Sequence record: LR595868.1
DNA from: Escherichia virus mEp460_4F5
Reading direction: 5' to 3' (one strand)
DNA length: 42,927 bases
In this document: piece by piece, positions 15,132-39,073 of the stretch
Layout of the letters: each line of letters opens with the position of its first letter
How positions within the stretch are numbered: position 1 is the first letter of the stretch
Made by a program: the position numbers and the translations under genes
The notes under the pieces: model-generated
The model's input: the letters and a program-made list of their open reading frames with translations, nothing else
Databases searched by the model: none
Told to the model about the DNA's origin: nothing

Positions 15132-18100
15132 ATGGGTAAAGGCAGCAGTAAGGGGCATACCCCGCGCGAAGCGAAGGACAACCTGAAGTCCACGCAGTTG
15201 CTGAGTGTGATCGATGCCATCAGCGAAGGGCCGGTTGAAGGTCCGGTGGATGGATTAAAAAGCGTGCTGCTGAACAGTACGCCGGTGCTGGACACTGAGG
15301 GGAATACCAACATATCCGGTGTCACGGTGGTGTTCCGGGCAGGTGAGCAGGAGCAGACTCCGCCGGAGGGGTTTGAATCCTCCGGTTCCGAGACGGTGCT
15401 CGGTACAGAAGTGAAATATGACACGCCGATCACCCGGACCATCACGTCGGCAAACATTGACCGTCTGCGTTTTACTTTCGGCGTGCAGACACTGGTGGAA
15501 ACCACCTCAAAGGGGGACAGGAATCCGTCGGAAGTCCGCCTGCTGGTTCAGATACAGCGTAACGGTGGCTGGGTGACGGAAAAAGACATCACCATTAAGG
15601 GCAAAACCACCTCGCAGTATCTGGCCTCGGTGGTGGTGGGTAACCTGCCGCCGCGCCCGTTTAATATCCGGATGCGCAGGATGACGCCGGACAGCACCAC
15701 AGACCAGCTGCAGAACAAAACGCTCTGGTCGTCATACACCGAAATCATCGATGTGAAACAGTGCTACCCGAACACGGCACTGGTCGGCGTGCAGGTGGAC
15801 TCGGAACAGTTCGGCAGTCAGCAGGTGAGCCGTAATTATCATCTTCGCGGGCGCATTCTGCAGGTGCCGTCGAACTATAACCCGCAGACGCGGCAATACA
15901 GCGGTATCTGGGACGGAACGTTTAAGCCAGCATACAGCAACAACATGGCCTGGTGTCTGTGGGATATGCTGACCCATCCGCGCTACGGCATGGGGAAACG
16001 TCTCGGTGCGGCGGATGTGGACAAATGGGCGCTGTATGTCATCGGCCAGAATTGCGACCAGTCGGTGCCGGATGGCTTTGGTGGCACGGAGCCGCGCATC
16101 ACCTGTAATGCCTGGCTGACCACACAGCGTAAGGCGTGGGATGTGCTCAGTGATTTCTGCTCGGCGATGCGCTGTATGCCGGTATGGAACGGACAGACGC
16201 TGACATTCGTGCAGGACCGACCATCGGATAAGGTGTGGACCTATAACTGCAGTAATGTGGTGATGCCGGATGATGGTGCGCCGTTCCGCTACAGCTTCAG
16301 CGCCCTGAAAGACCGCCATAATGCCGTTGAGGTGAACTGGATTGACCCGGATAACGGCTGGGAGACGGCGACAGAGCTTGTGGAGGACACGCAGGCCATT
16401 GCCCGTTACGGTCGTAACGTCACGAAGATGGATGCCTTTGGCTGTACCAGTCGGGGGCAGGCACACCGCGCCGGGCTGTGGCTGATTAAAACGGAGCTGC
16501 TGGAAACGCAGACCGTGGACTTCAGCGTGGGCGCAGAAGGGCTTCGCCATGTACCGGGCGATGTCATTGAAATCTGCGATGATGACTATGCGGGTATCAG
16601 CATCGGCGGGCGCGTGCTGGCGGTGAACAGCCAGGCGCGGACACTGACGCTCGACCGTGAAATCATGCTGCCATCCTCCGGCACCACGCTGATAAGCCTG
16701 GTTGACGGAAATGGCAATCCGGTCAGCGTGGAGGTCCAGTCCGTCACCGACGGCGTGAAGGTGAAAGTGAGCCGTGTTCCTGACGGCGTTGCCGGATACA
16801 GCGTGTGGGGGCTGAAGCTGCCGACGCTGCGCCAGCGCCTGTTCCGCTGCGTGAGTATCCGTGAGAACGACGACGGCACGTATGCCATCACCGCCGTGCA
16901 GCATGTACCGGAAAAAGAAGCCATCGTGGATAACGGGGCGCACTTTGACGGCGACCAGAGCGGCACGGTGAATGGTGTCACGCCGCCAGCAGTGCAGCAC
17001 CTGACTGCCGAAGTCACCGCAGACAGCGGGGAGTATCAGGTACTGGCCCGCTGGGACACGCCGAAGGTGGTGAAGGGCGTGAGTTTCATGCTTCGCCTGA
17101 CCGTGGCAGCGGATGACGGCAGTGAGCGGCTGGTCAGCACAGCCCGGACGGCGGAAACCACATACCGCTTCACACAACTGGCGCTGGGGAACTACAGGCT
17201 GACAGTCCGGGCAGTAAATGCGTGGGGGCAGCAGGGCGATCCGGCATCGGTATCGTTCCGGATTGCCGCACCGGCAGCGCCGTCGCAGATTGAGCTGACA
17301 CCGGGGTATTTTCAGATAACCGCCACGCCGCATCTTGCGGTTTATGATCCGACGGTACAGTTTGAGTTCTGGTTCTCGGAAAAGCGGATTGCGGATATCA
17401 GGCAGGTTGAAACCACAGCACGCTATCTTGGCACGGCGCTGTACTGGATAGCCGCCAGTATCAATATCAAACCGGGCCATGATTATTATTTTTACATCCG
17501 CAGTGTGAACACCGTTGGCAAATCGGCATTTGTGGAGGCTGTTGGCCAGCCGAGTGATGATGCATCCGGCTATCTGAATTTTTTCAAAGGAGAGATAGGG
17601 AAAACCCATCTGGCTCAGGAGTTGTGGACGCAGATTGATAACGGTCAGCTTGCGCCTGACCTGGCTGAAATCAGGACGTCCATTACGGGTGTCAGCAATG
17701 AAATCACGCAGACCGTCAATAAGAAACTGGAAGACCAGAGTGCAGCGATCCAGCAGATACAGAAGGTTCAGGTTGATACAAATAATAACCTGAACAGCAT
17801 GTGGGCTGTGAAGCTGCAGCAGATGCAGGACGGACGCCTTTATATCGCGGGTATTGGTGCCGGTATTGAGAATACTCCTGACGGTATGCAGAGTCAGGTG
17901 CTGCTGGCGGCGGACAGGATTGCGATGATTAATCCTGCGAATGGCAACACAAAGCCGATGTTTGTTGGGCAGGGCGATCAGATATTCATGAACGAAGTGT
18001 TCCTGAAATATCTGACGGCTCCCACCATTACCAGCGGTGGCAATCCCCCAACGTTTTCACTGACACCTGATGGTCGACTTTCTGCGAAAAATGCGGATAT

Positions 18101-18614
18101 CAGCGGTAACGTGAACGCGAACTCCGGGACGCTCAACAACGTCACGATTAATCAGAACTGTCGGATTCTGGGAAAACTGTCAGCTAACCAGATTGAAGGT
18201 GATATTGTCAAAACGGTGGGAAAAGCCTTTCCGAGAAATGGCAGTTATGCCAGCGGTACAATAACGGTCACTGTGTACGATGACCAGGCTTTTGACCGTC
18301 AGATAGTAGTCCCCCCCGTTCTGTTTCGTGGGGGTAAGCATGAAAACTTCAACAGCAACAACCAACAGTCATACTGGTATTCAACCTGTAAGCTGCAGGT
18401 ACTGAAGAACGGACAGGAAATCTTTCAGCAACCCGCGACGGATGTCAGCAGGGTATTTTCATCAGTCATTGATATGCCTGCCGGACACGGCCATGTCACC
18501 CTGACTTTCAATGTTTCTTCATATGGTGCTAATAACTGGACGCCAACGACCAGTATCAGCGACCTTCTTGTTGTTGTGATGAAGAAATCTACAGCCGGTA
18601 TCAGTATCAGTTGA
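15132..18614 (+). CDS. J: Tail tip / host-specificity protein gpJ
   Basis: 1160 aa; the N-terminal roughly 1000 residues are lambda J-like; the central segment and the last roughly 150 residues differ from lambda J as I recall it. Confidence 0.9.
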
Positions 18615-18633
18615 ATTTTATAACCCAGATACG

Positions 18634-18657
18634 GGCGCCAGAAATGGCGCCTTTTTT
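18634..18657 (+). terminator. Intrinsic terminator downstream of J
   Basis: GGCGCC-AGAAAT-GGCGCC hairpin followed by TTTTTT. Confidence 0.65.
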
Positions 18658-18672
18658 ATTTGTGGAGTGAAT

Positions 18673-20733
18673 ATGGCAGTACAGATTTCAGGCGTGCTGA
18701 AAGACGGTGCAGGAAAACCGATACAGAACTGCACCATTCAGCTCAAAGCAAAACGTAACAGCACCACGGTTGTGGTGAACACGGTGGCCTCAGAAAATCC
18801 GGATGAAGCCGGACGTTACAGCATGGATGTCGAGTATGGCCAGTACAGCGTTATCCTGCTGGTTGAAGGTTTTCCGCCTTCACATGCCGGGACCATCACC
18901 GTGTATGAGGATTCTAAGCCGGGGACGCTGAATGATTTTCTGGGCGCTGCAACAGAAGATGATGTTCGTCCGGAGGCACTGTATCGTTTTGAAAAGATGG
19001 TGGAAGAGGTGGCACGCAACGCTGAAGCCGCCTCTCAGAGCGCAGCGGCAGCAAAGAAATCAGAAACAGCAGCGGCATCGTCCAGGAACGCGGCGAAAAC
19101 ATCAGAGACGAATGCAGGTAACAGCGCGAAAGCGGCAGCTTCTTCAAAAACAGCCGCACAAAACGCAGCAACAGCGGCAGAACGTTCAGAGACAAATGCC
19201 CGTGCGTCAGAAGAAGCCTCCGCAGACAGTGAAGAGGCTTCCCGCCGTAATGCAGAGTCAGCCGCTGAAAATGCCGGAGTCGCCACCACAAAAGCGCGGG
19301 AGGCTGCAGCAGACGCAACAAAGGCCGGGCAGAAAAAGGATGAGGCTCTGTCGGCAGCGACACGAGCTGAAAAGGCGGCAGACCGCGCAGAAGCCGCAGC
19401 GGAAGTGACTGCAGAGCCCTATGCGAATATAGTGCCGCCGCTGCCTGATGTGTGGATACCGTTTAACGATTCACTGGATATGATTGCGGGTTTTTCTCCG
19501 GGCTATAAAAAAATAGCTATTGGTGACGATGTGGTTCAGGTCGCCAGTGATAAACAGGTTAATTTCAGTCGCGCATCAACGGCAACATATATCAACAAAT
19601 CTGGCGAACTGAAAACGGCGGAAATTAATGAGCCGCGATTTGAGTGTGATGGCCTGCTTATTGAGGGACAAAGAACGAACTACATGCTCAATTCGGAAAG
19701 TCCAGCCAGCTGGGGGAAGTCATCAAACATGGATGTGCCCGAAACCGGGACGGATAGTTTTGGTTTTACTTATGGAAAGTTTGTCTGCAACGATTCTCTG
19801 GTTGGGCAAACTTCGGCTATTAATATGGCATCAATTGCTGCAACAAAGTCAGTTGATGTCTCAGGCGATAACAAGTACGTGACAACCTCATGCCGTTTTA
19901 AAACAGAACGACAGGTAAGGTTACGTATACGGTTTGATAAGTATGATGGTAGTGCAACAACTTTTCTTGGCGATGCGTACATTGATACGCAAACGCTTGA
20001 AATTAATATGACAGGTGGTGCTGCCGGCAGAATTACGGCACGAGTCAGGAAGGATAAGACCACGGGCTGGATTTTTGCAGAGGCAACGATTCAGGCAATT
20101 GATGGTGAGTTAAAAATAGGCTCTCAGATACAGTATTCTCCTGAGCAGGGTGGGGCAACAGTATCTGGTGACTATATTTATCTTGCCACCCCACAAGTAG
20201 AGAATGGGCCGTGTGTATCATCATTTATTATTTCAGGAGGCAGCGCAACGACAAGAGCCAGTGATTTGGTTAGTATCCCCACCAGAAATAATCTTTATAA
20301 GTTACCATTTACTTTTTTACTTGAGATTCATAAAAACTGGGATATTGCACCAAACGCCGCACCCCGCGTGTGGGATATAGCAGCAGCCAATACCGGGCAA
20401 TCAGCAATTGCAGCAATCAACAGAGGTAGTGGTAAGTTATATATGAGTCTGTCAAACCCTTCAGGCTCGTATGTTAATAGCGCAGCGACAGATGTATTTA
20501 CAGAGAAAACCACATTTGGATGTATTGCAAAAGCTGATGGTCACTTTCATGTGGTGACAAATGGTAAAGCGGTTAATGAAGTTTATTGTGAATATAATGG
20601 CGTGACCGCTGATAAAAATATCCGATTTGGAGGGCAGACGAATACTGGAGAACGACATCTGTTTGGCCATATTCGCAATTTCCGCATATGGCATAAAGAA
20701 TTAAATGACAGGCAATTAAAAGAGGTCGTATGA
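18673..20733 (+). CDS. stf: Side tail fibre protein (Stf-like N-terminus, Ala/Ser-rich repeat shaft, unrecognised C-terminal domain)
   Basis: N-terminal roughly 120 aa match the lambda Stf N-terminus (MAVQISGVLKDG ... VEGFPPSHAGTITVYEDS); followed by an A/S/E-rich low-complexity shaft and a roughly 300-aa C-terminal region unlike lambda Stf; GGAG 5 nt upstream of the ATG at 18673. Confidence 0.8.
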   Translation: MAVQISGVLKDGAGKPIQNCTIQLKAKRNSTTVVVNTVASENPDEAGRYSMDVEYGQYSVILLVEGFPPSHAGTITVYEDSKPGTLNDFLGAATEDDVRPEALYRFEKMVEEVARNAEAASQSAAAAKKSETAAASSRNAAKTSETNAGNSAKAAASSKTAAQNAATAAERSETNARASEEASADSEEASRRNAESAAENAGVATTKAREAAADATKAGQKKDEALSAATRAEKAADRAEAAAEVTAEPYANIVPPLPDVWIPFNDSLDMIAGFSPGYKKIAIGDDVVQVASDKQVNFSRASTATYINKSGELKTAEINEPRFECDGLLIEGQRTNYMLNSESPASWGKSSNMDVPETGTDSFGFTYGKFVCNDSLVGQTSAINMASIAATKSVDVSGDNKYVTTSCRFKTERQVRLRIRFDKYDGSATTFLGDAYIDTQTLEINMTGGAAGRITARVRKDKTTGWIFAEATIQAIDGELKIGSQIQYSPEQGGATVSGDYIYLATPQVENGPCVSSFIISGGSATTRASDLVSIPTRNNLYKLPFTFLLEIHKNWDIAPNAAPRVWDIAAANTGQSAIAAINRGSGKLYMSLSNPSGSYVNSAATDVFTEKTTFGCIAKADGHFHVVTNGKAVNEVYCEYNGVTADKNIRFGGQTNTGERHLFGHIRNFRIWHKELNDRQLKEVV

Positions 20734-21008
20734 AAGATTTAACTTTGAAGTTTCATGACAAACTGCAGTTTAAGGCCTTCCTGTCATCTCTTGGCTGGGC
20801 GGAAGATGAAGACCTCCAGAATAAACTGTTAGTTGATGAAATTGGTTTCACCTACACAGAAACAGGGGTAACAGAAGAGGGAGAACCTGTCTGTATCCGG
20901 AATGATGGTTATTTTGTCAACATTCGCATTCTTGATGACTTGTTTGATGTTTCTGTATTCTCTGATTATGTCGTGGAGCTGGAAACACCGCTTCGGGAAT
21001 GGAGCTGA
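20730..21008 (+). CDS. Hypothetical acidic protein, possible tail-fibre chaperone
   Basis: 92-aa ORF translationally coupled to stf by an ATGA overlap; not similar to lambda Tfa. Confidence 0.4.
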   Translation: MKDLTLKFHDKLQFKAFLSSLGWAEDEDLQNKLLVDEIGFTYTETGVTEEGEPVCIRNDGYFVNIRILDDLFDVSVFSDYVVELETPLREWS

Positions 21009-21020
21009 AAGGAGGAAATA

Positions 21021-21308
21021 ATGGATATAAGCCCCTTACTTCATGCACTTTGTGCTGTGGCTGCGCAGATACTGGTTGGTCTTTTTACCGGAAACTGGGC
21101 TTACGGAGCGATAGCCGGTTGTACGTTCTTCATTGCGCGTGAACACACCCAGGCAGAATATCGCTGGATTGAAATGTTCGGGCATGGCAAGCGAATGAAT
21201 ATGCCGTGGTGGGGCGGTTTTGATCCGCGCGCGTGGGATGTGGCAAGCCTGATGGATTTTGCTGTGCCGGTGGTGGCGTGTCTGCTGATCTGGATGTTGA
21301 TCCGTTAA
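21021..21308 (+). CDS. Small integral membrane protein (accessory gene after the tail fibre)
   Basis: 95 aa with about three hydrophobic helices; GGAGG-like ribosome-binding site (AAGGAGGAAA) upstream. Confidence 0.45.
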   Translation: MDISPLLHALCAVAAQILVGLFTGNWAYGAIAGCTFFIAREHTQAEYRWIEMFGHGKRMNMPWWGGFDPRAWDVASLMDFAVPVVACLLIWMLIR

Positions 21309-21325
21309 ATATAAAAAGTAAAAAG

Positions 21326-21358
21326 CCGCAGTAACTTGTCATGATAGGATACTGCGGC
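21326..21358. terminator. Hairpin between convergent genes (probable bidirectional terminator)
   Basis: GCCGCAGTA ... TACTGCGGC, a 9-bp stem with a roughly 15-nt loop, between the membrane-protein gene (+) and the dinI-like gene (-). Confidence 0.35.
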
Positions 21359-21425: not shown

Positions 21426-21674
21426 TTAGTGAACAAACCACTCGTCAGCAGACTCCCAGGTATCTTTCAGAGTTTCCTGAACAAAAGTTTTAGCTGAATC
21501 TTTATCGGCGGTGCGCGTAACAGAAAGGCCATCGTTGCTGGTGGCTTTTACGATCACCTCTACATCGTCATAACGTTTACTGATGCGTCGGGTTAATTCT
21601 TCCTTTAACGCATCCACAGCACCGGTTGGCATTTTAGTCATTTTTTCTTTGGCTATACAGATTTCAATACGCAT
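21426..21674 (-). CDS. dinI: DinI-like SOS-response protein
   Basis: 82 aa; matches DinI (MRIE ... IAK ... GA.DAL..EL.RRI ... ETWESAD.WFV); GAGGGA ribosome-binding site upstream on the minus strand. Confidence 0.85.
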
Positions 21675-21735: not shown

Positions 21736-22833
21736 TCAAGAGGTCTTATTTCTGCTCTTTTGGAGCTCTTCAAAACGATTATGTAAAGATTTCGGATACA
21801 GTTCGGTATATACCTGCCATAGCACGTTTAATGAACGATGCCCTGTAACTTGGGCGACTTCCTCAATACTAAAGCCAGCCTCAAATAAGCGACTTGCCCC
21901 TTCTCTACGCAAATCATGGTATCGCAGATCTTTAATACCTAATTTGCTTCTTACTCTCTGAAATCCCGCAGTAACAGAAGTGCTGTTATATGGAAAAATG
22001 AATTCCGATTTTTTGGGCTGTCGTTGGACGATATCCCAGGCTTCCCCAAGCAAGGCTACTTTCATGTGGTTGCCTTCCTTTTTGCGTGGATCTTTCCTGT
22101 CTCTTACGAGTATAGATTTTTGTTCTTGGTCGAGATCTTCCCATCGTAACCGGCATACTTCTCCGATTCGCATACAGGACCACACAGAAAATTTGAGGAT
22201 ATCAACGAACGGAATTTTTGAGCATTTATGAGTAGATCGTTGTTGAAGGCCTTCAATGAGCATGTCCAGTTCATCAGATGCTGGTCTACGATTACGACGG
22301 TTTGATTTACCAATCAAACCAAGTTTAAGTAGATATGGACGAGCGCTTTTCGCCGGGTTTGATGTGTAATTAATTCCGTATACAGGTTTGGCCGCATCCA
22401 GAACACTGCCAAGATAACTAACATCGTGGCTGACTGTTGCTGGACCTGCACCAGCGTTGTTTCTTAGCCTACAATGTTCAATTACGTCATTTTCTGTCAG
22501 TTCGGATAGTTTGATCGCGGAGATGTCACTATCCATAAGCAGTTCCAGCACATATCTTTTAGTACGACCTGCTTTACCTCCGGCATTTGGGTCATTTAAA
22601 TATTTGTGTAGTAAGTCACGGACTGTAAGTCCGTCAACTGCATTTGATGATGGAATGCCATATAGATCTAATTCCATCACTTTCTGTGTACCCCATGTTT
22701 TGGCATGGGCATGTTTAGGGAATGTTTTGCTTTCCCTGTAAGTGATAACACCTTTTTCTTTGATAATCACATTACAGCGATAGCGTGGTGTGCCATCGGA
22801 TTTTAGTCGTTTCTCTATGTTATAGTACGCCAT
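21736..22833 (-). CDS. int: Tyrosine integrase
   Basis: 365 aa; C-terminal catalytic region with the R ... H..R ... Y pattern (LRYHDLRREGASRLFEAG ... GHRS ... YTELY); GAGG ribosome-binding site about 8 nt upstream. Confidence 0.9.
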   Translation of the reverse strand: MAYYNIEKRLKSDGTPRYRCNVIIKEKGVITYRESKTFPKHAHAKTWGTQKVMELDLYGIPSSNAVDGLTVRDLLHKYLNDPNAGGKAGRTKRYVLELLMDSDISAIKLSELTENDVIEHCRLRNNAGAGPATVSHDVSYLGSVLDAAKPVYGINYTSNPAKSARPYLLKLGLIGKSNRRNRRPASDELDMLIEGLQQRSTHKCSKIPFVDILKFSVWSCMRIGEVCRLRWEDLDQEQKSILVRDRKDPRKKEGNHMKVALLGEAWDIVQRQPKKSEFIFPYNSTSVTAGFQRVRSKLGIKDLRYHDLRREGASRLFEAGFSIEEVAQVTGHRSLNVLWQVYTELYPKSLHNRFEELQKSRNKTS

Positions 22834-23090: not shown

Positions 23091-23172
23091 GTTTTCATTT
23101 CAAGGTGTAATCCATACGCGGCTTAAGAATGAGATATAATGCGACTTTTAGTGTTCCGCTTGAGAGGCCATG

Positions 23173-23706
23173 ATGCTTACCCTGGACGAGATAGGTCAAT
23201 CAGTACGTAACAATATCCAGTTGATTATTGATCATGTCGGCTTACCTCTTGCTGTTGGTCCGCTCAGTGATGATGATTACAAGATTCTGTGTGGTGGCTA
23301 TGGTGAGCTTGAATGGGACTATGCGTTAAGTACCTATGGCAACTCCAGAGAAAAGTATGAGTTCTGCATAAAACTTGTTCAGCAAGGTCGGGTTCAGGGA
23401 ATACCATCAGGAGCAGCAATTTGTGTTTATGGGGTTGAAGAAAACATCTTTCGTATCCATATGATCGAAAGGTTTTCTAGAGAAGATGAATCTCACCCAT
23501 TGAAAGGGCGCATGGTTTTACTCACTCTTATGAGTGCTTTTATATTTTGTAAAGCTGTTGAATGTAAAGTTGTCCACATTGTAGAGCCAGTACCAGAACT
23601 GGTGCAGTATTACGAGTCTTTTGGTTTCCGCATGGAACAGTGCGGTTATGTGATGTCGGCAGTCATTGATGAGCTGCAGGATATCTTTCTTAAATTTGCT
23701 CAGTAG
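23173..23706 (+). CDS. Hypothetical protein, AT-rich accessory gene (weak GNAT-like C-terminal pattern)
   Basis: 177-aa ORF on the strand opposite to int and the early-left operon; GAGAGG ribosome-binding site; composition visibly more AT-rich than the phage core. Confidence 0.5.
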   Translation: MLTLDEIGQSVRNNIQLIIDHVGLPLAVGPLSDDDYKILCGGYGELEWDYALSTYGNSREKYEFCIKLVQQGRVQGIPSGAAICVYGVEENIFRIHMIERFSREDESHPLKGRMVLLTLMSAFIFCKAVECKVVHIVEPVPELVQYYESFGFRMEQCGYVMSAVIDELQDIFLKFAQ

Positions 23707-37604: not shown

Positions 37605-37627
37605 GGGGGAATTACCCCCCTTTTTTT
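37605..37627 (+). terminator. Strong intrinsic terminator immediately after Q
   Basis: GGGGG-AATTA-CCCCCC hairpin followed by TTTTTTT; the stop codon of the convergent minus-strand gene lies in its loop. Confidence 0.7.
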
Positions 37628-38160
37628 CTCTGTTGCTTTAATAAAATTTTAATATTTTGTCTGATTATGATGAGGCAATGTAATAAAAGAAATACCGTTA
37701 GTATTGCAAGCCATACGCAAAATAAGCATGCATATAAATTAGTTGAAAGTCCAATAGTGAATTGTGCAATTGCTGTTGTGATAGAACATAATATTGATGT
37801 ATTAATAAATGAGGATAAATTGTCTAAAGGTTTATAAAGTACACTATCATTGATTTTGTCAATAGGTATACCAGTGGCAATGCTATAAATTTCCTTATAT
37901 TCCTGAGTTGCAAAAACCTTATCGCGTAAATTTATTATGACAAAGGTATGCAGGCTCAATAAAAATGAGCCCACGGAAATAAAACCGGAGAAGAGATAGC
38001 CTCGTAAGTTTTTATGATAAAAATCAAAAAAGTTAACACTTACTTTAGGTGTGTTTCTGTACAATAGGTAAAGTGCAAGCAATGCCAGGATCGAGAATGC
38101 AAGCAGTGTAAGGTACTGATACCTCAATCTTTTATTTATTAGCCATTCATATAAAGGCAT
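37612..38160 (-). CDS. Four-helix integral membrane protein, second gene of the antisense AT-rich cassette (candidate effector)
   Basis: 182 aa; four hydrophobic segments of about 20 aa; basic C-terminus (KQQRKKGG); overlaps the upstream gene by 14 nt; AT-rich. Confidence 0.6.
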   Translation of the reverse strand: MPLYEWLINKRLRYQYLTLLAFSILALLALYLLYRNTPKVSVNFFDFYHKNLRGYLFSGFISVGSFLLSLHTFVIINLRDKVFATQEYKEIYSIATGIPIDKINDSVLYKPLDNLSSFINTSILCSITTAIAQFTIGLSTNLYACLFCVWLAILTVFLLLHCLIIIRQNIKILLKQQRKKGG

Positions 38161-39073
38161 TTTTATTCGTCCCGTTCAGCATTTCTTCTTTTATCATATC
38201 AAAAACAGGGTTTGTTGTATAATTATCGTTTGTCAATCCATTGACTTTATCGGCAATTATATCGAAATCGTATGTTTCAAAAAAAACAGGGCAGTTCATA
38301 AAATCAATGGTTTTTTCTATTCCTGCATGGTTTACTGCAATAACCTGTGCTTTAGCAACTCCACTCATAGAATTATAAATATTTGAAAGATTCTGAGATA
38401 GTTGTTGCACTTTTGTTCTGTCGCTAGAATTAAAATTCATATCTATTGTGGTGGTGTTAACAAATTGTTCAAGCGCAGTCATTGGTCCACCTTTAAAATC
38501 TATATAATTAAATTTAAAGCTTGTGCTTTTAATCTCTTTGAATTGACATAAAACACTCTGAATGTTGTTTTTATTTGTCATAAGGCTGAAAGTCAGTCTT
38601 TCTTTGTATTTTTTATTTATTGCAGTTACTTCTTTTTGTTTTGGTTTATCACCAAGTTTTTTTATTTCTTCTTTATTTTGATTTCTGATAAATTCATTAC
38701 TTATTGTTTCTAAATGAGAAAAGAGAGTGTTCAGACTGCATGAACCGTGGTGATACATATAGAGACCAGAAAGATTAGATTTTTTAATTAAGAAAAAGTT
38801 GAAATTAGCAAGTTTGTCACTTCCTTGAAGATCTTCAATTTTAAGCTGGAATTTACCATCAACAAATTGCGACTTACAGTTCTTTTTTTGGTTTCTGAAT
38901 GTGACAACTAATCCATAATAGAAATCATTCACATCCGAAATGAGAATTTTACGAGTATAGTCTGTGCGACTGTGTTCTCTGTTTGATGCGTTGATAAAAG
39001 CATTCATTACGTCAACGGTATTAATATTTTTGTTATTGTTATTTATTGTAAATCCTATGCTTCTAACTTTCAT
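38147..39073 (-). CDS. Hypothetical soluble protein, first gene of the antisense AT-rich cassette (candidate sensor)
   Basis: 308 aa; Asn/Lys-rich; no catalytic motif recognised by eye (no Walker A); AT-rich codon usage unlike the phage core. Confidence 0.6.
   Translation of the reverse strand: MKVRSIGFTINNNNKNINTVDVMNAFINASNREHSRTDYTRKILISDVNDFYYGLVVTFRNQKKNCKSQFVDGKFQLKIEDLQGSDKLANFNFFLIKKSNLSGLYMYHHGSCSLNTLFSHLETISNEFIRNQNKEEIKKLGDKPKQKEVTAINKKYKERLTFSLMTNKNNIQSVLCQFKEIKSTSFKFNYIDFKGGPMTALEQFVNTTTIDMNFNSSDRTKVQQLSQNLSNIYNSMSGVAKAQVIAVNHAGIEKTIDFMNCPVFFETYDFDIIADKVNGLTNDNYTTNPVFDMIKEEMLNGTNKNAFI

Follow-up and report, generated by a model that had tools for sequence, protein, structure and literature searches.

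What does a lambdoid phage carry between its host-specificity gene J and its integrase, when lambda lom and tfa are missing, and do the small genes found there belong to the tail fibre? The question is raised by three consecutive genes, stf, orf92 and orf95, of Escherichia virus mEp460_4F5 (sequence record LR595868.1; the whole stretch of 42,927 nucleotides that was analysed is called the window below). All three open reading frames (ORFs) lie on the forward strand exactly where the preliminary description, made from the sequence letters, had placed them. The gene stf (18673..20733) encodes 686 amino acids from an ATG at 18673, which is preceded by GGAG and coincides with the annotated start in phage 21; an in-frame GTG lies at 18667. 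Next comes orf92 (20730..21008), which is translationally coupled to stf and encodes an acidic α/β protein of 92 amino acids, a member of PHROG 1361. The third gene, orf95 (21021..21308), encodes a protein of the inner-membrane type, 95 amino acids long, in PHROG 1443. The answer towards which we lean is that stf and orf92 constitute a two-gene side-fibre cassette of lectin type, in which orf92 would be a dedicated accessory protein, and that orf95 is an independent cargo gene.

The partnership between the fibre module and orf92 is strict and, as far as we could find, undescribed. The ATG of orf92 overlaps the stop codon of stf as ATGA; the preliminary description had read this as coupling, and both the coupling and the gene order proved to be conserved in 21 loci. 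An ORF of the orf92 family stands directly downstream of the fibre module in every one of the 21 distinct loci examined (hidden Markov model, or HMM, E-values of 1e-39 to 2e-17). In 19 of these it starts within the fibre stop codon, in the form ATGA, TAATG or GTGA; the start in the other two, L008 and L027, lies some 10 nt downstream. The linked loci span lambdoid, Drexlerviridae, Dhillonvirus, T5-like and rV5-like phages as well as metagenomic prophages, that is, at least five phage groups, and the coupling is kept in unrelated genomes down to about 30% identity. Five loci that were chosen by their fibre match alone, and that were absent among the orf92 tblastn matches listed, still had orf92 (HMM E 1e-34 to 2e-17). 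Searches by tblastn with two members of the orf92 family retrieved 146 and 160 phage records, versus 222 for the fibre module; the lower number of orf92 records is a shortfall of search sensitivity. Locus L008 (GCA_002994485.1, 2691-6297) has two tandem lectin-tipped fibres, of 679 and 416 amino acids; only one orf92 homologue comes after the pair, and genes for a holin and an amidase come next.

Fibre loci are recombination hot spots, and orf92 resembles no protein whose function is known; both facts would suit a small selfish or regulatory hitch-hiker that settled beside such a hot spot and has nothing to do with the fibre. We regard this as very improbable. The start/stop overlap persists from 100% to about 30% identity, across phage genomes that are unrelated and across metagenomes; strict adjacency of this kind is not expected of a hitch-hiker. 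The boundaries of orf92, moreover, segregate together with the fibre gene's conserved 3' end.

What kind of fibre does orf92 accompany? The N-terminal tail-attachment domain of Stf (18673..19065, plus strand) is of the lambda Stf type, as had been proposed: residues 3-160 are 75% identical to lambda orf-401, the domain matches Pfam PF08400 with E 5e-69, and it also matches PDB chain 9e7m_Ta, 'Tail fiber protein', with E 2.9e-50. It is followed by a shaft of repeats rich in Ala, Ser, Glu and Thr (residues ~134-256, 19066..19434, plus strand), recognised in the translation and giving weak repeat-type matches to lambda orf-401 and other fibres; the match to orf-401 covers residues 136-242. The shaft is presumably trimeric. 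Beyond residue 242, BLAST finds no match to either lambda orf-401 or orf-314. The preliminary description had set the length of the non-lambda C-terminal part at about 300 amino acids; its divergence from lambda is borne out, and the absence of any lambda match past residue 242 extends it to about 430.

The same description had called this C-terminal part unrecognised, which is incorrect: it contains a named domain that scores above the cut-off of its profile, proteins with this module carry a RefSeq name, and a homologue, Gp22 of phage IrisVonRoten, has been described (PMC11990801). Three portions can be distinguished. The first, region A (residues 257-330, 19435..19656, plus strand), is a conserved junction of the form PLPDVWIPFND ... 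NEPRFE.DGLLIEGQRTN. It is 47-89% identical across all fibres of the lectin-tipped type, in which neighbouring regions fall to 13-40%; in the alignment, the junction PLPDVW.P..D ... NEPRFE..GLL.EGQ.TN has invariant columns; Stf matches PHROG 1419 with E 0. Region B (residues 331-531, 19657..20259, plus strand) resembles the head-spike fibre of RcGTA. Its match to NCBIfam NF048003 (GTA_spike_fiber) has E 8.7e-15 and scores 55.7 bits against a cut-off of 36; RefSeq, too, names the fibre 'phage head spike fiber domain-containing protein'. The remaining residues, 532-688 (regions C and D, 20260..20733, plus strand), make up a C-terminal domain weakly similar to the LamG/ConA family and end in the conserved motif RHLFGHIRNFRIWHKELNDRQL, which recurs in every relative as IRNFRIWHxxLxDxQ. 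The Laminin_G_3 profile (ConA-like lectin/glucanase) matches Stf at residues 562-683 with E 1.2e-5 to 2.6e-5 and 24.9-26.0 bits, under the Pfam gathering score of 27.6; it matches 9 of 24 members of the fibre family, with a best E of 2.1e-10. PADLOC returned nothing for the C-terminal part of Stf.

The module that runs from PLPDVWIPFND (residue 257) as far as the terminal motif falls in PHROG 1419/5939, the type of IrisVonRoten Gp22, and is common property of many phages. Searches with it recovered 2574 database proteins at E<=1e-10 and the 222 phage records mentioned above, and its carriers include Drexlerviridae, Dhillonvirus, T5-like, rV5-like and P2-type fibres. Conservation within the module is very uneven. 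Two parts, the junction (257-330) and the final 48 residues, are conserved, and the two stretches 331-531 and 532-640 are hypervariable and exchanged separately. Region B is a mosaic: its identity to relatives can be as low as 23% or as high as 93%, whatever the values of the regions on either side. Compared with phage HannyBb, Stf is 93% identical in residues 331-531 and 38% in 532-640; compared with the virulent phage KarlJaspers, the values are 35% and 70%. Separately exchanged hypervariable regions are the pattern expected of receptor-binding surfaces. Temperate lambdoids and virulent Drexlerviridae or T5-like phages swap the variable domains (window 19657-20640) independently of each other, as noted in comparisons with KarlJaspers, HannyBb and 1H12.

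The protein encoded by orf92 has a pI of 4.17, with 20 acidic and 8 basic residues, and falls in PHROG 1361 ('unknown function') with E 3e-42. It had been described as not Tfa-like, and our searches agree: BLAST detects no similarity to lambda Tfa at E<=10, there is no Pfam match at E<=0.1 and none in the NCBIfam, PADLOC or PDB profile searches, and homology to known Tfa chaperones was not found. The structure prediction that had been proposed for this protein gave a confident AlphaFold2 (AF2) monomer, with a pLDDT (predicted local distance difference test) of 94 and a predicted template-modelling score (pTM) of 0.80. The predicted fold is unlike those of the solved fibre chaperones, Tfa included, and has no recognisable structural relative. 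The family is small: a search of 1.84 billion cluster representatives gave 80 of them at E<=1e-3, and its full-length members have 85-110 amino acids; profile matches within proteins of 650-2700 amino acids proved to be PKD or TPR repeat proteins and were treated as spurious. The literature on phage 21 side fibres and on chaperones of chimeric Stf proteins yielded nothing on the orf92 or orf95 proteins.

Selection on orf92 is purifying. The ratio of non-synonymous to synonymous substitution rates (dN/dS) is 0.27-0.41 in close pairs, and in distant pairs the proportion of non-synonymous differences (pN) stays far under the saturated synonymous value (pS). For cassettes that lack a distal fibre (the window, phage 21, 1H12 and PhiR40_1), dN/dS is 0.27-0.41 and pN is 0.24 versus a pS of 0.87. 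Sequence identity of orf92 between loci follows that of the conserved fibre regions A and D (r ~0.65) and not that of the variable regions B and C (r 0.3-0.4).

In many relatives the cassette has a third member. Behind orf92, 12 of the 17 loci compared have a short fibre gene, which is separated from it by 2-12 nt in eleven of them and is split in Salmonella phage VSe12. Whether from lambdoid, Drexlerviridae, Dhillonvirus or T5-like phages, the encoded distal fibre proteins have the N-terminus M[AV]T.T.IP.DIT.LK in common; their bodies are unrelated, and most carry the intramolecular chaperone domain Peptidase_S74. In VSe12 (L018, 3075-4026), an ORF of 64 amino acids has the docking N-terminus and a separate ORF of 277 amino acids represents the rest of the gene; the split may be a frameshift or a sequencing error. 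The motif M.T.T.IP.DIT.LK is absent in all six frames of the window. Besides the window, no distal fibre gene stands after orf92 in phage 21, 1H12, PhiR40_1, locus L025, L008 and the rV5-like phages.

The presence of the distal gene suggests another role for orf92, namely that of a structural connector, a hinge or adaptor comparable in role to T4 gp35, which would hold the docking peptide of the distal fibre at the end of the proximal one and which in the window would be a leftover, or a cap, after loss of the distal fibre. We consider this unlikely, if deserving of attention. Lambdoid, Drexlerviridae, Dhillonvirus and T5-like phages all preserve the order of proximal fibre, small protein and distal fibre, and the short gene with the shared N-terminus is found behind orf92 in the majority of loci, as described above. 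Also, the conserved C-terminal tail of orf92 (P.R.W.) is of lower confidence in the monomer model, as would be expected of a docking segment, and the BASEL authors labelled the homologues of 88-92 amino acids in IrisVonRoten and SelmaRatti 'tail fiber protein'. The third gene product of the IrisVonRoten locus, Gp24, is a T-shaped distal fibre, which the same authors set on the proximal fibre (PMC11990801). Against a connector stands the persistence of orf92, which is intact and constrained in at least five lineages without a distal fibre (the phage 21 type, PhiR40_1, L025, L008 and the rV5-like phages), and purifying selection is seen in such cassettes of the window, phage 21, 1H12 and PhiR40_1. 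Moreover, the branched fibre of phage DT57C consists of LtfB (gp107) and LtfA (gp108), which are consecutive, with no small gene listed between them (PMC10713586). Constraint on orf92 in the absence of a distal fibre, together with the single copy behind the two fibres of L008, ties its core role to the upstream fibre module.

Does orf95 belong to the same assembly? The gene starts 12 nt past the orf92 stop codon, with an AGGAGG ribosome-binding site 7 nt upstream. The preliminary description had it as a three-helix membrane protein, and the protein has two strongly hydrophobic segments, at residues ~5-23 and ~76-94; the Gly/Ala-rich segment between them (~26-39) is only moderately hydrophobic, so that three helices are plausible and not certain. 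The annotators of phage 21 assigned to the counterpart of orf95 a signal sequence and two transmembrane domains. The match to PHROG 1443 ('unknown function') has E 1.7e-57. We collected 568 homologues, in Escherichia, Salmonella, Citrobacter, Leclercia, Aeromonas and Comamonas, which remain about 60% identical across the gamma- and beta-proteobacteria. In their alignment, the central loop REHTQAEYRWI..FG.GKR.NMPWWGGFD.R.W is almost invariant and the hydrophobic ends vary. The dN/dS of orf95 is 0.14-0.49. No match was found in Pfam, NCBIfam, PADLOC or PDB, and there is no homology to a known exclusion or defence protein.

The distribution of orf95 is independent of that of the fibre. It follows the distal fibre gene in HannyBb and PhiR47_1 and occurs with different fibre types; in lambdoids its place is where the tail-fibre region meets the attachment site. 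In the P22-like phage Gally its homologue stands alone between the tailspike gene and int and is preceded by a terminator-like hairpin and a promoter-like site; in the P2-like phage phiHAP-1 its neighbours are the tail-fibre assembly gene on one side and the sheath gene on the other; and a Comamonas prophage has it next after a giant J protein. The slots in the P22-like and P2-like phages are, we take it, the classical cargo slots of gtrABC and of Z/fun. The suggestion that orf95 sits at a position used for exclusion or lysogenic-conversion genes thus agrees with its homologues in equivalent slots of P22-like and P2-like phages, to which one stand-alone chromosomal copy can be added. Since the distribution is independent of the fibre and includes known cargo slots, orf95 is best described, as far as its sequence and context go, as a putative moron-type cargo gene that encodes a small inner-membrane protein and is probably not part of the fibre. 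The lone chromosomal homologue, 57% identical, is found in Aeromonas rivipollensis CP149130 (L028, 7001-7309), with genes for Pirin, a RIO1 kinase, two members of the lipid A acyltransferase family and DNA polymerase II as neighbours; with this copy, the orf95 family extends beyond phages. The Comamonas context had suggested membership of orf95 in a lysis cassette, but its neighbours there gave no lysis-family matches, and the suggestion found no support.

A late phage function, such as modulation of lysis timing or a guard of the progeny against re-adsorption, would be an alternative to cargo expressed in the lysogen. The gene lies only 12 nt past orf92 behind a strong ribosome-binding site, and the window shows no promoter-like site that would serve it alone; with such a gap and no promoter, orf95 would be expected to form part of the late transcript, and late expression has to be reckoned with. 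Large virulent Aeromonas and Escherichia phages with partial matches to its loop point the same way. We nevertheless deem a late function improbable. The Comamonas neighbours have no recognisable lysis functions. Holins typically have a charged C-terminal tail, and the alignment shows none at the C-terminus of orf95. The chromosomal copy of Aeromonas lies amid housekeeping genes, and the Gally homologue is preceded by terminator-like and promoter-like sites; the consensus scans for promoters and terminators, it should be said, perform near chance level, in the window and in Gally alike.

The reading of the locus as a fibre cassette plus cargo can be put together as follows. Stf would dock on the tail tip via its lambda-type N-terminal domain. 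Its repeat-rich shaft would carry the conserved junction and then two variable β-rich domains, one similar to the RcGTA spike and one similar to LamG/ConA lectins, which, judging from their profiles and mode of variation, most likely bind a surface glycan (O-antigen, lipopolysaccharide or capsule) for reversible primary adsorption. Synthesis of the orf92 protein would keep pace with that of Stf by way of the ATGA overlap, and the protein would most likely bind the conserved framework, that is, the junction and the C-terminal motif, and not the variable receptor surfaces; it may aid assembly or stay on the fibre. In relatives, the same elements may also support a short distal fibre with its N-terminal docking peptide; the phage in the window would have a reduced version, from which the distal fibre is missing. 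For orf92 being a folding or assembly helper, the chances seem to us about even. As for orf95, it may act on a conserved component of the envelope, for example by blocking superinfection, which is a guess. Tentatively, and with less conviction than the cassette itself, we propose that orf92 founds an undescribed class of fibre accessory proteins, peculiar to lectin-tipped lateral fibres and acting as assembly factor, as distal-fibre joint or as both in at least five unrelated enterobacterial phage groups, and that orf95 is a new and widespread membrane factor of prophages and chromosomes, the loop of which targets a conserved envelope component. The orf92 protein is not, in any case, homologous to known fibre chaperones.

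Several points weigh against this reading. Contact between orf92 and Stf is deduced from gene order and covariation, not observed directly, and the correlation with region D may partly reflect DNA linkage and not co-adaptation. The distal gene, which in most relatives comes 9-12 nt behind orf92, fits the connector role equally well. Lectin-type β-sandwich domains usually fold without a dedicated chaperone, which weakens the case for orf92 as a chaperone. The fold assigned to Stf depends in part on a profile that stays below the Pfam cut-off in Stf itself. The structure prediction proposed for the Stf C-terminal domain was carried out on residues 250-688, with alignment rows 61-99% identical, and gave a model (pLDDT 42, pTM 0.39) that was unusable and was discarded; the C-terminal fold hence relies on profiles and on the published model of a homologue. 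Finally, the consensus scan found no promoter-like site upstream of orf95 in the window, which leaves its expression in the lysogen unsupported.

How common is the cassette? The window belongs to a mosaic lambdoid phage, the left arm of which is 97.6% identical to mEp460 across 86% of the first 25 kb. The stretch stf-orf92-orf95 (window 18600-21299) is 99.0% identical at the nucleotide level to phage 21 (OL657228), with the same gene order, and several gut lambdoids, ev017, PhiR63_2 and Perceval among them, carry the three genes in nearly identical form. Of 5426 complete E. coli genomes, 450 (~8%) have 80% or more of the region, the best of them at 99.5% identity. The cassette is, in short, an ordinary and widespread lambdoid side fibre of the lectin-tipped type, plus a cargo gene, and its sequence was already known. 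In phages 1W, 4A7, D2 and 3W, the stf match ends at one shared point about 40 codons short of the 3' end, and orf92 is found ~2.7 kb further on; in 1W (OM475428, 5664-8300), an insertion of three ORFs annotated 'mobile element protein' occupies this interval, stf is truncated, and orf92 and orf95 are intact downstream.

Directly upstream of stf is J (15132..18614), with no lom gene between them in the window; the layout of phage 21 is identical. The gap between J and stf contains, within the late operon, a terminator-like hairpin (18633..18652, plus strand) with an 8-bp stem, six GC pairs and a T-run, and the phage 21 record has a terminator annotated at the same place. Beyond orf95 there is a dinI homologue (21426..21674, minus strand; Pfam E 1e-19), which lies between orf95 and the integrase gene (21736..22833, minus strand). 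Between orf95 and dinI, a 9-bp inverted repeat, GCCGCAGTA ... TACTGCGGC, with a loop of 16 nt (21325..21358, strand unassigned) and a T-run on the minus strand, was read by eye, the loop-length limit of the hairpin scan having excluded it. It is likely the dinI terminator and possibly a bidirectional one.

Two other places in the window attracted our attention. Two overlapping minus-strand ORFs of 181 and 307 amino acids (37612-39073) occupy an AT-rich island (GC 31-36% versus ~50% around), flanked by a DUF968/HNH gene and a DNA methylase. Neither ORF has a Pfam or PADLOC match; the pair looks like horizontally acquired cargo and is possibly defence-related. Just past int, a plus-strand ORF of 178 amino acids (23170-23706), in a stretch of 42% GC, likewise has no match in Pfam or PADLOC.

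For the retargeting of phages or delivery particles by module swaps, it matters whether the 92-amino-acid partner has to travel with the fibre, and also whether orf92 provides a socket for a second, plug-in fibre. Many E. coli prophages have orf95, whose degree of conservation is uncommon among small membrane proteins; if a phenotype were found for it, a new envelope factor encoded by prophages would be gained. The findings on either gene leave intact the general view of fibre construction and of cargo carriage in phages.

Among known systems, the closest is phage 21, where the three genes (CPT_21_22/23/24) bear the labels 'side tail fiber', 'hypothetical protein' and 'putative membrane protein'; the two phages part 3' of orf95, where phage 21 has sitABCD and the window has dinI and int. 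With the cargo genes at the tail end of other phages (lambda lom/bor, P22 gtrABC, P2 Z/fun, HK97 gp15, and Cor), orf95 shares slots and no sequence similarity. Region B and its flanks have a counterpart in the RcGTA protein Rcc01080 (PDB 6tb9, chain 6tb9_F3), residues 44-285 of which align with Stf 299-545 at E 1.4e-9. Rcc01080 is a head-spike fibre that binds capsular polysaccharide (PMC10218006); unlike Stf, it is a capsid-vertex fibre of 325 amino acids without a LamG-like terminal domain.

A small coupled gene immediately downstream of a fibre gene is a familiar arrangement, seen in lambda Stf/Tfa, P2 H/G, Mu S/U and T4 gp37/gp38; in lambda, tfa starts at the last base of orf-314, much as orf92 overlaps stf. 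A further comparison is with IrisVonRoten (Bas32), a virulent T5-like phage, which differs in the N-terminal anchor of its fibre and in having a distal fibre gene that the window lacks. The C-terminal module of its Gp22 is 52% identical to that of Stf over all 432 amino acids. Gp22 has been modelled as a proximal lateral fibre, from the C-terminus of which a galectin-like domain protrudes, 'possibly an additional RBD' (receptor-binding domain), in a paper whose text passes over the 92-amino-acid Gp23 (PMC11990801). Gp23 is 50% identical to orf92 and is joined to its fibre gene by the same ATGA overlap.

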